DNA from: Eledone cirrhosa
Lineage: Eukaryota
NCBI GenBank assembly: GCA_964016885.1
Contig: OZ024750.1
Location: forward strand, 33,356,001 to 33,420,000
DNA: 64,000 nucleotides
Direction of reading: 5' to 3'
The notes under the pieces were generated by a model. It ran no database searches and had not been told where the DNA came from. It was given only the letters and a program-made list of their open reading frames with translations. Made by a program: the position numbers and the translations under genes. The number at the start of each line of letters is the position of its first letter. Position 1 is the stretch's first letter. Of this stretch, positions 1-59,439 are shown piece after piece.

Positions 1-2175
1 TAAATCTATCCCTAAAAATATTTCCCTTAGAATCTCGGGTCTATCTTCTAACATACAAGTATTTAAGGAACACGCCGAGTACTACGATAACGCCCTTAGT
101 AAAGCAGGCTACCTCAACAAAATAGAGTACATAGATGGGAACAATCAAAACACCCAAAATAAATCCCACATAGGTAGATATAATAACACAACACCAAACC
201 ACACTTACTACCATAGTATGCACACCAGTAAACCAACAAACAAAACTAATAGAAAGCGATGCAAAGAGTACTTATGGTATAACCCCGAATACAATAGTTC
301 CATTAGTACAAATTTACCAGTACTCTTCTTTAAAATAATTAAAAGACATTTTCCCACATCACACAAATACCACAAAATCCTAAACCCTACCACTATAAGA
401 CTGTCATACTCTACAGCGTTAAACCTTGAACAACACATAAAAAAGCTCAATACTAGAAGGTTAGACGAAAACACTAAGAACTTAAGTACAAAGAACACAA
501 AAAAACAGTAAACAATACACTACAGAACATAAATAAACCACACCTAAGTTCGTCCGCAATACTACTCCAGAGAAAACCCAACGTACACAACTGTAACTGC
601 ACCTATCCTGACAACTGCCCCCTCGGCAATAACTGCCTGGAAAAAAATATTATTTATAAGTGTACCATTAAATCCGGAGGCAACGAGTGGTATTACGTGG
701 GATCAACGGCAACATCGTTTAAATCTCGATTGTATAGGCATTCTTACTCAATAAAACACCAGAGCCAAAGAAATGTAACAACTTTAGCAGAAAAAGCTTG
801 GACGCTCAGGGATAGCGAACAAAAGTTTACCCTAAAATGGGAAAAATTAGCTAAAACCCAAAGCTTTTCCAGGAGCCAAAATTTCTGCAAATTGTGTAAT
901 CTTGAGATTTATTACATAATCACACACAAGAAGAAACTGCTGAATAACAGAATTGAACGAACATTATTCTGCCGTCACAGAACTAAAACCCTTTTTTCCC
1001 ACTACAAGCCGAATATTACATAAAAGAGGGACATCCCCCAACTATATAAACCTTAATCTAGTTAGAAAAATATAAAAACAATCTCTTCTCAACATATATT
1101 AATAACCTTAAATTACCACACTAATAATGGAAAGATATGCTGATGAGAATAGGTACAAATATGCGATAATGAATGTGTCTAAAAACGTCCATAAGTATGT
1201 ATATATATGTGAAAATGTATATAAATAAGTAAATATATATATATGTTTGATGTGTATAGTTAGATGTAAGTGTATTCATGTATTAAAGTGCTTATATATA
1301 TATATATATATATATATATATATATATATATATATATATATGTATGTATATATGTGTATATGGATGTGTATGTATGTGTATGTGTGTACACATGGACTAG
1401 AGTATGTATGTATATATGTGTGTGTCTATACGTGTGTATATAAAGATAAGTTGAGTATGAAAATGTATACACATGAGCGCGTATGTATGTACATGAATAC
1501 ATGTGTGTATATATATGTGTATGCATGTGTATATATATGTAAGTATGAATATGTGAATTGTGAGTATATGTATTTTGTAGAGGTGTGCAAATATATTTGT
1601 TTGTGAATGCGTGGGTGAAAGGATACGTACACTTGAAAGAAAAATTTAAGTCTGAATGTTAATTAAGTGCAAACACAAAACCAACCACGCATATCTTTAC
1701 TATCTCTAATCCTTCTATAGATTTAGAAAAATAACCAATAATATATTCTATAAAAAATGTCAAAACAACAGATGGGAATCTAATTACTCACTGCCACCAA
1801 GAATTCTCACTGCTATCGAAAAACCACTCCTTCAACTATTCTTCTAACAACTTCACCCCTCCCTCCTAATATTCTCTATAAAAACTAAATAGGTCCTCAG
1901 TAATATTATTCTGATGAAATGACAGTAAATAATAACATTGAAATATTGAATGTCTGCATAACTAAAAGTTTGTAGATAGCAGCTGTTTTAGGTTATGTAA
2001 CTGTTATAGAAACACGTGTCAATAAATTCCTTTCAACTAAACTGTATCCATTCAAATCTTTCTATTTTTCTCCGGATTACTTTTGGAACTACAACTGGAA
2101 CCGTCGAGCAAACTCTACGTGAGCTGATAATCTACTGTGTGTAATATTTATATTACAACACAACGGAAAATACTG
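1..2175 (+). mobile_element. Penelope-like element, 3' part (RT C-terminus/linker, GIY-YIG endonuclease, 3' pseudo-LTR); broken ORF
   Basis: Frame 2 from base 2 reads KSIPKNISLRISGLSSN...YYDNALSKAGY. ORF 218-511 has RKR..LWYNPEYNSSISTNL..FFKIIKRHFP..H..HKI...IRLSYST. About 590-1023 reads CNC..CPLGNNCLEKNIIYKC..WYYVGSTATSFKSR...FCKLCNLE...CRHR. A hammerhead plus AATAAA follows at 1906-2026, then (TA)n. Confidence 0.9.
1906..2025 (+). ncRNA. Type I hammerhead ribozyme in PLE pseudo-LTR, long branched stem II
   Basis: ttatt-CTGATGA-a-atgacagt...actgttat-a-GAAAC-ACGT-GTC-aataa. Stem I ttatt/aataa, palindromic stem III, internal hairpin tgtctgca/tgtagata. Confidence 0.75.
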
Positions 2176-2271
2176 TATATATATATATATATACACACAT
2201 ATATATATATACATATACATATATATATATATATATATATATATATATATATATATATATATATATATATA

Positions 2272-2512
2272 TAAGTAGAAGTTGTATTTAATTTGTTGGA
2301 AGTCCGACAAACATAAATGTTTATAACTGATTTAGCGCACTCAACAGTTACTGGAGTAAATATTCAATATTAAATAAATGGAAACTATATTTATAAAACC
2401 ATGTTTATTTTATTATATATATTTCATGGGCAACCAAGACAACATTGGTACGCTTTCATCAGATAAAATACTAAGTTTGTTTTATAAATAGAGACGTACC
2501 CATGAAAATCAT
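2272..2512 (-). mobile_element. Short non-coding PLE-like (pLTR) element, family H1, with hammerhead
   Basis: Near-identical reverse complement of 21738-21975; 3' end abuts (TA)n. Confidence 0.8.
2407..2469 (-). ncRNA. Minimal type I hammerhead ribozyme (family H1)
   Basis: rc: attttat-CTGATGA-aagcgtacc..ggttgcccat-GAAAT-ATAT-ATA-ataaaat. Confidence 0.75.
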
Positions 2513-2671
2513 ACCTGGAAATTCACATATATATATATGTGTGTGTGTGTGTGTGCATATAAATACATATATATACATACATACACACACGAACTCACAC
2601 TGACACACACGCATATATATATATATATATATATATATATATATATATATATATATATATATTTATATATC

Positions 2672-2809
2672 GGAATGGATGCAGTAAAAACCTGTTGGAC
2701 CATTACTCACCCGAGTACTCGATAATTGGAGTAGTAGAGTGTAGTAATATGAAGGAGTCGGGTTCCCGACGGCTGAGCTCCTGTCGTTTCAACAACTAGT
2801 TCCGAACTG
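2672..2809 (-). mobile_element. Short (TA)n-embedded element, GAGCTC family
   Basis: Homologous to 7410-7549, 26800-26940 and 29117-29257; flanked by (TA)n. Confidence 0.65.
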
Positions 2810-2890
2810 ATATATATATATATATATATATATATATATATATATATATATATATATATATATATATATATATATATATATATATATATA

Positions 2891-56771: not shown

Positions 56772-57544
56772 AATTCGACAATTCTACAGTTTACTGTGCT
56801 TCATTGTGTCTAAAAAGAAATGTATACAACACTGATCGGTGTTCAGTTACTTACACACATAGTGAAATAGACAAGGCACAACAGGGAGTAAGCTGAGGAA
56901 TATCCATTAATTAATCTACCTGAAATCCACCACATAGCAAATGCCAAAATCGACTAAAAAAATATGTTTATCGAACTAGTATAGTTAGTGGAATTCAAAT
57001 AAACCCATATCATTTTCTCGAAAGCAAATAAATTCAAGAGTTGGAAGGAGTGACAGTAGATAACGCTCAGTTAGATTTTGTGTAGCAGAATTGTAAATCA
57101 GCAGGGTAAAGAATTAAGTAGAATATTATATGGAATTCTGTTCTTCTACATTTTTATCTATGCAGGTCGATAAATTGATAAGTTATGCACTGAAGTCGAT
57201 TTAATACGTAATACAATTCCTTCAGAAAAACTTGGCTTTCTTCCAACAAAAGAAATCAATATTTTAAAACAAAACTGAATATTTACATATATGTGAATGG
57301 TTCCCTAAAATAGTATGTTTAAAATAACGTCATTTTAAAGTTGGAGAATATTGATCGATTTTTGTCTAGACACAAGTGACTGAAAGGGGTGATTGTGATT
57401 GTTACCAAGGAGGTTAGCATGTAATTGAATGGTTGCACTGTGGCAAACCTTGTGATATACGGCAGTTACCACATTTGCTATATAATACATAGAGCTACAT
57501 TAAATAACATATTCCTTAGAGTATATGTTATTTATTTATCTATT

Positions 57545-57665
57545 GAAGGTGCGTGGCTTAGTGGTTAGAGAGTTGGACTCGCAATGGTGAGGTTTTGAGT
57601 TCAATCCTGGGACCGGCTGATGCATTGTGTCCTTCAGCAAGACACTTTATTTCACGTTGCTCCAT
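57545..57665 (+). mobile_element. Family B SINE, 5' half
   Basis: gaaggtgcgtggcttagtggttagag..gagttcaatcc..gtgtccttcagcaagacactttatttcacgttgctcca. Confidence 0.85.
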
Positions 57666-58213
57666 CTGCCAGGAGTTGCGACCGGTAGATACTATCAGCA
57701 ATGGAAAGACCAATGGAAACATTTGTTTCCTTGACTCGATTTGACGATGTCCGCCCTCGATGTGACGAGGTCCACCTAAGTGAATGAGGTATGGGATCTT
57801 GTCGATCGATCACAGCGATTTATTTATTTCTTATTCGGATTTCAGATTAGTTTAAAATCAAAATATTTCCATTTAATAAAATATTGAAGAAAATGTCCAA
57901 AGATAACTTTATCTTTACAGCTTATTGTCAAAAATATAAAAGGATTTTGTGAATTCTTCCTTATGTCATTCTTAAAAGCAAATTACTGAAAGCATGAGTA
58001 GCTAAATAGATAATGAATATGACAGAATACGACAGTTAGCCTGCCTGGAAGTGGGTAGTTTGTATTATAACTGTCGATGACGAGAAATTAAAGCTGTAAA
58101 CACTGTTGACAAATTTAAGTTTACACATATTATATTAACTTACAGAATGCCATGGAAATGAAGTATGGGTCATAATCAGACAGAACTGCAGTTCCTTATT
58201 TGTAAATATCCCC

Positions 58214-58297
58214 GTGTCCGATGACGGGCCAGTTTAAAAGAGACTCCTCCAATATACAGTGATGGCCATAACTGAACCCCGAAACCAATGGTCGCAC
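58214..58297 (+). ncRNA. Candidate hammerhead (core CCGATGA)
   Basis: gtgt-CCGATGA-cgggccagtt...aactgaacccc-GAAACC-AAT-GGTC-gcac; (GT)n about 35 nt downstream. Confidence 0.5.
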
Positions 58298-59439
58298 ATA
58301 AATTTGAAGCGTAAGAAATATTGTTTATACTGTGTGTGTGTGTGTGTGTGTGTGTGTGTGTGTGTGTGTGTGTGTGTGTGTGTGTGTGTGTGTGTGTGTG
58401 TGTGTGTGTGTGTGTGTGTGTGTGTGTGTGTGTGTGCGCCCGCGCACGCAAACAGAAATAAGAAAGCAAACGACACAGTACAATGGAAAGAAAATATATT
58501 ATTTGTTTTACGCTTGATATAGTATGAAAAAAGCTTTAACGTTTCAGACGCTAGTCCTGCATCAGAATATAGAATGATTAACTAAAGAATAGAGAGATAA
58601 AAAGAAGTCATATTGTCGCGAAGCAACTTGTAATATAATCGTTGCAACAAATAATATGTTTTATTTCATTCCTCTCTTAGACTTTCTACATTAAATAAAT
58701 AATTATTATGCCCCTACACAGTATATGCTGCCAGATATTATTAAATCATGCAGAAAATTGCTTTAGATTATAACCCACGTTGATGGAAGAATCGATTTTA
58801 AAAGTTAGACTTGGTTATTGTTTACTCTCTATATATGCCTGTGCTTTCTGAATTACGATTAAATTTTATAGAGTTTATAATGTAGCTCTTAGATGAGAGA
58901 ATTTAGGACATTAGTGATAGGTAAATAATCTCATCATAAAAAGCATTCACAGCGTTTCAAAATACTATTGTAGGATATATAGGAACTTCAAAAAAGGTCA
59001 CTGAAAATAAAGTATATAATCAAAAGCTTCTTTTGTGTGTGTTTCTTCATAGAAAATCTTTGTGTACGTGTGACATGGGATTTGTTTTATTCTCATTGAT
59101 ATATTTGCTTTGTCGAATATTTGAACATTCTGTTGACTCTGAAACTGAATGAAAACTGAAAGGAATATTAGGAATTTGTTTCTGTGTAGTGGAATGTATG
59201 AAGTTGCAACTGTTGATTGAGAGAAAGCATGATCGATAAAAAGGTGAAAAAGTCAGATACATTGTATAAATAAATACATTCCCTAAAGCGTGATATCACG
59301 TAGGAACGCAAATATATAATTGACCTGAATTTTCGAAACAGATTAATTATATCTTAGGTTAAAGTTCAAAGATTTGACTTTTCGTTTTCAGAGAGATTGT
59401 ATCAATTATATTTGGAATAATTTAAATTACAAGCTATTG

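Follow-up and report, generated by a model that had tools for sequence, protein, structure and literature searches.

The question raised by this locus is whether the many hammerhead ribozyme motifs legible on both strands of a 64 kb stretch of Eledone cirrhosa DNA are real, what carried them there, and what they mean for transcripts that cross them. The stretch (the window; contig OZ024750.1, positions 33,356,001 to 33,420,000, G000:C10:33356001-33420000 in our coordinates) lies in a 3.0 Gb assembly with chromosome-scale contigs. It is AT-rich, with 120 tandem-repeat rows, chiefly (TA)n and (CA)n, and repeats mask 59% of it; the output of a generic repeat finder was likewise dominated by (TA)n. 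A preliminary description, made from the letters alone, had listed about 25 motifs and had attributed them to non-autonomous ribozyme elements mobilised by Penelope-like elements (PLEs). It is found here that most of the motifs are most likely the 3′ ends of coding PLEs that are truncated at the 5′ end and often inverted.

First of all, the presence of the hammerhead motifs in the window is confirmed. A site-by-site parse showed that all 25 coordinates carry the sequence as described, and the 15 sites of the main list all contain CUGANGA, stem II, GAAA, stem III and NUH in the type I order; that is to say, they are PLE-type type I hammerheads, with a stem III that is often palindromic, and the cleavage positions proposed for three of them (2020, 21830 and 33989) do fall on H17. 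The statement that a pairing stem I closes the main motifs is true of only part of them. When contiguous base pairs were counted and at least 4 bp was required, stem I was kept at nine sites (1906, 2407, 16742, 21774, 26308, 33953, 34431, 50128 and 51599), while it is weak at the other six, with 3 bp at 17184 and 28516 and 2 bp or fewer at 24225, 38251, 46182 and 48494. The ten remaining sites had been called variant or decayed; five of them (2903, 3217, 6033, 38009 and 39975) belong to one family (B) whose consensus core is CAGAAGA, and they are therefore not decayed at that base. In what follows, U4 denotes the canonical CUGANGA core and A4 the CAGAAGA type (U4A). The sites 48163 and 58535 are decayed copies, 58214 has a U4C core, and 19330 has a covariant U3:A8 core that recurs in its single sampled relative (locus L031). 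The site 41756 lacks U16.1 and has no relative in an 870 kb genome sample, and it is therefore a doubtful motif. Thus the core departs from the canonical form at U4 in family B, and also at 41756, 48163 and 58535.

Since the DNA is AT-rich and rich in palindromes, chance matches have to be considered, and two observations speak for them. Many single motifs fold no better than shuffled sequence (z from −0.2 to −2.6 over 16 sites), and the Rfam hammerhead models, proposed earlier as a check, gave 0 matches in the window at the gathering threshold; among the best 150 of 257 matches at E ≤ 10 there was no hammerhead, only miRNA-type matches driven by microsatellites. The controls, however, are near zero. 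In the window, a strict descriptor gave 4 matches against 0 in the reversed and 0.00 in the shuffled sequence, and a descriptor without stem I gave 10 against 0 and 0.23, respectively. Among 129 hits picked regardless of stem I, 85 could form at least 4 bp, against 6.8 (maximum 15) when the 3′ arms were permuted between families, and the same scan of reversed and shuffled sequence gave 7–14 matches before the stem I filter. In the whole genome, the family A superfamily pattern was found 79,044 times (0 reversed), the 5′ half of family H 16,475 times (0 reversed), the family B pattern 17,572 times (0 reversed), and a general pattern whose stem III insert has six bases matched 120,266 times (12,195 in the control); the non-overlapping patterns (six-base stem III insert, H and B) sum to about 142,000 above background. 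The stems also covary: in an alignment of 24 family A sequences, 94.4% of cells are paired, two-sided changes occur in 9 of 21 pairs (46 such cells against 15 shuffled), and any slid register drops to about 52% paired or below. The chance explanation is accordingly refuted by the controls and hardly deserves any credence, save for single sites such as 41756. A census with a relaxed core found no further core class over background in the 870 kb sample.

For the sample, 87 blocks, each 10 kb long, were placed at round coordinates; 61 of them came from the four largest contigs, so the sample is not strictly random. One descriptor was used for window and sample alike; it mis-parses 16742 and misses 2407. 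An earlier descriptor, which demanded a pair at 10.1/11.1, missed most families. This position is mismatched in 41 of the 85 full-topology motifs of the sample (U.U in 26). These 85 comprise 73 U4 and 12 A4 motifs, ten of the latter belonging to family B, and they extrapolate to 293,000 motifs in the genome (block bootstrap 203,000–386,000; 251,000 for U4 alone), or about 100 per Mb, and the pattern counts in the whole genome are in agreement with this. A full motif is thus expected about every 10 kb; the earlier figure of one per 2.5 kb cannot be retained, as it counts decayed copies and both strands. Nor is the window an unusually dense landscape: its 64 kb contain 10 full motifs where the genome average would give about 6.3 (P = 0.15), as many as 10 turn up in 15% of the 64-kb sets drawn by resampling, and the flanks (about 116 kb) hold 12, so that there is no hotspot. 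For family A, 23 copies were predicted in 870 kb and 18 were counted; therefore, the sample is not enriched. Lunse et al. (2016) reportedly assembled about 150,000 variants associated with PLEs, taking many genomes together. As to single species, published counts for S. mansoni are about 2,000 and 1,300, for the coelacanth 4,000 and for X. tropicalis 9,000 (PMC4209133); PMC7229834 gives over 6,000 for Acropora, about 5,000 for Mytilus and 126,247 for the axolotl. As the axolotl genome measures 28.21 Gb (bioRxiv 10.64898/2026.07.22.740005), its 126,247 motifs in 28 Gb amount to about 4.5 per Mb, against about 47–100 per Mb here, with descriptors that differ. The total here exceeds the published counts that were consulted, but because of the differing descriptors this ranking is to be taken as indicative.

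As to the carriers, the motifs had been regarded as non-autonomous ribozyme elements mobilised by PLEs. This does not hold for most families, whose motifs belong to the 3′ ends of coding PLEs; it holds for family C, which consists of tandem units without a reading frame. PLE frames were found upstream of families A, B, D, F, G, H, I and J (for G at one locus), six of them of Hydra type (A, B, D, F, G and J) and two of Neptune type (H and I). Four frames lie in the window itself. The first (2–1020, +) is a Hydra-type remnant of family J with the end of the reverse transcriptase (RT), a GIY-YIG endonuclease (EN) and a CxCx5C linker, and it extends further upstream in locus L046; 891 nt 3′ of it stands the family J hammerhead (1906–2025, +; C3 at 1911, a stem II arm of 91 nt, stem III ACACGTGT, H17 at 2020, stem I of 5 bp), of which L046 has an inverted copy. 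The second (24389–26239, −) is a 5′-truncated Hydra-type RT and EN remnant, followed after 121 nt by a family F hammerhead (24225–24272, −) whose stem I is broken here. The third is an EN fragment (46319–46483, +) within a family F pair (46182–48205, both strands), flanked by a hammerhead at 46224 (−) and a decayed one at 48167 (+), an arrangement that would fit an inverted PLE insertion. The fourth (49001–49923, +) is a Neptune-type remnant with a GIY-YIG match (Pfam PF01541, E 4e-5) and a CX2-5CxxC linker, and 209 nt behind its EN lies the minimal family H hammerhead (50128–50170, +; H17 at 50166); the corresponding distance in three sampled loci is 201–310 nt.

The sampled loci extend these links. 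A microsatellite lies within 420 nt downstream of family A in 18 of 18 loci, of family B in 25 of 26 and of family G in 20 of 21, and the tie to microsatellites noted earlier was borne out in the window, where 23 of 27 sites lie at most 250 nt upstream of one, against 33% of random positions. Many family A copies have a tail of about 90 nt, 11 of the 18 loci have an inverted upstream copy, and locus L008 continues into RT and EN. For family B, 11 of 26 loci have an EN on the same strand at a distance of about 1 kb upstream, and in L235 the frame is nearly complete. Family D is linked to a frame through L066, family I through L204 and family G through L231, the only locus where a Hydra-like EN was found 1.2 kb upstream of it. 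The copies of G and I have a common 3′ end and a varying 5′ extent (86–553 and 107–965 nt, respectively).

The order RT and then C-terminal GIY-YIG EN is seen in the window at 24389–26239, in L008, in L235, and in L046 together with the window, while D and G are tied to EN only. By eye, the frames of J, F, B and D show the CxCx5C linker and CxxC plus CxH around E/N, and no CCHH; that of family A shows the linker and CxxC, and that of family G is frameshifted and partial. RWK/RWR and DKT motifs occur in the RT N-terminus in L066 and L235, and DKT in L021, though they are not seen for every family. Judged by the marks defined in PMC8557442, A, B, D, F, G and J would thus be Hydra-clade elements, an assignment made by motifs and not by a tree; the PLE proteins of this genome look, by eye, like Hydra-1_Obim. 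H and I appear to be of Neptune type, or possibly of Nematis type, by the CX2-5CxxC linker, also read by eye.

Several points weigh against taking most motifs as the ends of coding PLEs. A frame within about 1.5 kb was found in just 1 of 18 loci of family A, 1 of 21 of G and 1 of 21 of I; the link for G consists of one locus with 550 nt of common upstream sequence; for families E and K and the motifs 28516 and 58214, no parent element was traced; and the covariation counts given above are inflated by relatedness among the sequences. Since frames are scarce near A, G and I, short non-autonomous subfamilies may exist among them. It might even be supposed that most motifs are dedicated non-autonomous elements, either retrozymes or elements like short interspersed nuclear elements (SINEs), moved by PLE proteins, and the frameless loci of A, G and I agree with this. 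Against it stand the eight families tied to coding PLEs, their variable 5′ ends, and the rarity of same-strand tandem copies (A 0 of 18, B 2 of 26, G 0 of 21, I 0 of 21); retrozymes are tandem and without a coding parent, and coding parents were found for all four. The supposition is therefore considered unlikely for the motifs at large.

It does hold for family C, the only one that looks like a non-autonomous tandem retrozyme without long terminal repeats (non-LTR retrozyme). The window contains about two tandem units of about 478 bp (33560–34480, +), each with an internal TA tract, and their hammerheads lie at 33953–33995 and 34431–34473 (+), with H17 at 33989 and 34467. In the sample, a tandem copy is present in 16 of 23 loci and an upstream frame in 1 of 23; arrays of 17 and 12 units gave no PLE match, and the unit, of about 475 bp, has no reading frame and folds strongly on itself (z −9.3, owed partly to the TA tract). 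With animal non-LTR retrozymes (PMC7229834; bioRxiv 10.64898/2026.07.22.740005) it has in common tandem units of a few hundred bp with one type I hammerhead each, the lack of a frame, a range from monomers to long arrays, and a strongly self-paired unit; its own traits are the length of about 475 bp, the internal TA tract and arrays that can invert. An inverted array of this kind was observed in locus L244 (G000:C5:30845000-30854999), where seven minus-strand units are followed by five plus-strand units at a constant period of 474 bp.

For the other families, it is very probable that the motifs are folds near PLE 3′ ends, left as stubs where reverse transcription stopped early or inverted. In such a process, the PLE protein, with its RT and GIY-YIG EN, would nick (TA)n, and target-primed reverse transcription would begin 3′ of the hammerhead; it would mostly stop or invert early, producing short ribozyme-bearing stubs, and inversions would double the motif. 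The density of motifs is likely due to this starting point just 3′ of the ribozyme, because even the shortest insertions then copy it. In the sample, PLE-like coding sequence makes up 2.9% and falls into 33 segments, a number well below that of the full hammerheads (85). The copies run 60–260 nt past the core, through the cleavage site, and the template would therefore have been uncleaved or circularised RNA. In the parent elements, the ribozymes would probably cut the precursor RNA slowly, as dimers or with the help of protein, and one family, C, would have turned into a tandem retrozyme.

What this means for host transcripts was put too strongly in the preliminary description, according to which any long transcript crossing the region meets many potential self-cleavage sites; this is overstated, as just the sense-strand copies count toward cleavage. 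It has been reported that single minimal PLE hammerheads are inactive in vitro (PMC4209133), that their cleavage is protein-assisted, and that hammerhead mutants still allow insertion in vitro (PMC11167929). Of the 85 sampled motifs, 8 have a same-strand partner that shares their stem III at a distance of up to 3.5 kb, 31 have such a partner on the opposite strand, and 19 have a stable stem III (at least 14 nt). The gap between the hammerhead fold of the monomer and its minimum-energy fold is 3.8–7.5 kcal/mol in palindromic families, 2.0 in B and 2.9 in D. Since same-strand partners are rare and opposite-strand ones common, widespread cleavage of host transcripts is possible but is not the default expectation. 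The majority of the stubs in the genome are probably silent fossils. One could go further and propose that the host has co-opted the ribozymes to cut or terminate long read-through transcripts. Their sheer number would suit this proposal, and the families with a stable stem III could act as monomers; yet the copies decay in the ordinary way, stem I is weak at 6 of the 15 main sites, dimer partners are chiefly on the opposite strand, and a Pfam search of 42 frames from unique window sequence found no host exon. Co-option is thus very improbable.

Family B deserves separate treatment, as it is an abundant family with a fixed, unusual and apparently undescribed core change, CAGAAGA. In the window it is represented by an inverted pair (2903–3292, both strands; C3 at 2955 (−) and 3238 (+)), which consists of a 5′-truncated PLE end and its inverted copy, by a copy with three intact stems that runs into (TA)n (6033–6108, +; H17 at 6094), by one truncated just 5′ of stem I with one change in stem III (38009–38068, +), and by one with intact stems (39975–40050, −). 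Further fragments, beyond those listed earlier, were noticed at 38471–38528, 19033–19065 and 26755–26799. The fold consists of a stem I of 5 bp with a distal stem of 7 bp, a stem II of U.U and 3 bp, a stem III of 4 bp, and CUU, H17 being U. Among exact 31-mer matches in the genome, 17,572 have A at position 4, while 70 carry U and 108 either C or G; A4 is therefore the master state. A U4 master was rejected, as the 70 U4 copies are at the level of C4 plus G4, and five of ten that were fetched sit at inversion junctions. In runs X5 and X6, from other organisms, position 4 is unchanged, but these data do not suffice to give the variant an age. When further A4 families were looked for with loose criteria, 154,115 matches against 54,659 in the control were obtained, multiply counted and therefore uninformative; the commonest one outside family B lies, by eye, at the end of an RT frame resembling those of long interspersed nuclear elements and forms no hammerhead. 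A U4 family built like B (U.U, 3-bp stem II, 4-bp stem III, long loop) was seen at L111 5243 and 5834, L137 6532 and L058 8066, and is a natural comparator.

Variation within family B avoids the stems and core. In run X1, letters at no less than 5% of depth occur at just one of the 49 positions that are paired or in the core, whereas 14 of the 109 in loops or upstream sequence have them (Fisher p = 0.039, or 0.006 when the change that keeps a G.U pair is not counted); contig depth is not equal to copy number, and three positions where the window copy differs from the majority were left out, one of which, in loop II, would make 15. The single stem change is the one keeping the G.U pair, and CpG decay may explain it. 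The genome alignments show a matching pattern but are drawn from the same genome.

Most likely, family B carries an attenuated ribozyme that has nonetheless preserved its fold, and weak activity is somewhat favoured. Almost as much can be said for a ribozyme that is dead or nearly so and spread anyway, its stem conservation being due to chance or to binding by PLE protein: in a deep mutational scan, CUGA-turn mutants are low in activity except for the C3/G8 swap (PMC9901934), H17 is U, cleavage is unneeded for insertion in vitro (PMC11167929), and the conservation test is modest. On the other side, all three stems and the distal stem I are intact, the gap of 2.0 kcal/mol to the minimum is the smallest of six tested, and a viroid tolerates U4C (PMC3088659). 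An attenuated yet amplified ribozyme fits with cleavage not being needed for insertion. Literature searches for U4A or CAGA core variants found none, most subscription papers lying outside their coverage; U4A is not named in the consulted text of PMC3088659, whose Figure 5 or supplements could list it, whereas in the present genome it is the fixed state of a family of over 17,000 copies. Other natural core variants described there (Perreault et al., 2011), namely U3:A8, U4C and the U10.1-U11.1 mismatch, also occur here.

Much of this is already in print: truncated and scattered PLE hammerheads, Hydra PLEs that insert at (TA)n, and a Hydra element of octopus that bears a hammerhead. The minimal and variant hammerheads in the pseudo-LTRs of metazoan PLEs (Cervera and de la Pena, 2014, PMC4209133) have in common with the present ones the type I form, a short palindromic stem III, the U3:A8 variant, in some families one more nucleotide after A9, a large number of families in each genome, and mostly solo copies of truncated PLEs with opposite-strand pairs 100–700 bp apart. 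They differ from them in scale (here about 142,000 counted from patterns, and an estimate of about 290,000, the descriptors being different), and in that several families here have stem II arms of 50–90 nt, a 10.1/11.1 mismatch or a U4A core. With Hydra-clade PLEs (Craig et al., 2021, PMC8557442) the carriers have in common the C-terminal GIY-YIG EN, RWK-like and DKT motifs, the CxCx5C linker, CxxC plus CxH around E/N, (TA)n targeting and a hammerhead near the 3′ end. The same source gives few Hydra families beyond cnidarians, whereas here many of them bear most of the motifs. Its supplement lists Hydra-1_Obim of Octopus bimaculoides with a hammerhead; that motif was in none of the 244 loci here, and four family motifs of the window, U4A included, had no match in that supplement, where line breaks could mask one. 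Of the literature on octopus or cephalopod hammerheads, only PMC8557442 proved relevant, most subscription papers being outside the coverage; the main text of an octopus repeat annotation (PMC13282606), in the part consulted, makes no mention of ribozymes, and the word retrozyme is not used among the matches listed in the literature search. In summary, this is a known phenomenon on an unusual scale, apparently with one undescribed core variant and one retrozyme family.

As to a role in transposition, PLE hammerheads may just parasitise PLEs (PMC8557442), and their cleavage was found dispensable in vitro (PMC11167929). Family B, with more than 17,000 near-identical copies, an altered core and intact stems, is a natural experiment in this respect, which may mean either a widened catalytic core or a fold kept for another job. 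With motifs in such numbers, selection against ribozymes on the sense strand of introns could be tested with high power; the scale also reveals how many hammerheads the Rfam models miss. It is rather doubtful that all of the strongest statements hold together, namely that this is the densest hammerhead population yet described (about 300,000), produced by a Hydra-clade radiation, with a U4A family whose ribozyme is maintained by selection and still cleaves, be it as a monomer or together with the PLE protein, so that the accepted core would be widened, and with tens of thousands of working sites in host read-through RNA.

The remaining motifs of the window are as follows in outline. Family A is present at 2406–2470 (−), a Hydra PLE 3′ end with H17 at 2414, a stem I of 8 bp and a mismatch near the base of stem II, at 21774–21838 (+), with H17 at 21830 and a tail of about 90 nt before (TA)n, and, as another subfamily, at 51598–51663 (+), with H17 at 51655. 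The family D hammerhead (16741–16814, −) has a stem I of 8 bp and H17 at 16749, its relative in L066 lying about 1.2 kb behind a Hydra EN. That of family G (26308–26363, −) has stem III ATATATAT and H17 at 26313, and copies of this family stop at a fixed site before (TA)n. The minimal family I hammerhead (38251–38290, +) has the stem III ACGT and a weakened stem I, with a Neptune-type EN upstream in L204, and a decayed copy with A9 changed lies at 58535–58570 (−). An H-related hammerhead (48412–48540, both strands) has its core at 48500 (+) with a weak stem I, and an inverted, core-truncated copy at 48412–48467 (−), which was absent from the earlier list. Long stem II helices mark family E (17186–17259, +; stem III ACCATGGT, stem I of 3 bp) and the U4C hammerhead with core CCGATGA (58214–58297, +; stem III ACCAATGGT), which has no relatives in the 870 kb sample; a motif with no family letter (28516–28625, −) has a stem II arm of 85 nt, H17 at 28519 and a stem I of 3 bp. 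Family K (19330–19375, −) has the U3:A8 core TTGAAAA and a weak stem I, and the doubtful motif (41756–41796, +) has a core but also lacks a contiguous stem II.

Some minor observations may be added. At 40443–40519 (+) there may be one more hammerhead, whose stem III is palindromic and whose stem I is weak, and family F copies that start with CCGA (L135 4276–4353, L058 1770–1825 and window 48167) suggest a U4C subfamily. Long hairpins at 21299–21423 and 21541–21640 adjoin a family A copy and belong to a common short interspersed repeat, which we take to resemble a SINE of octopus genomes. Remnants of non-LTR retrotransposons, RTE-like by eye, are found at 59575–60670 (−), with an RVT_1 match at 59578–60228, and at 43971–44504 (+), and a 59-bp minisatellite occupies 12440–14082 with 27.9 copies at 96% identity.

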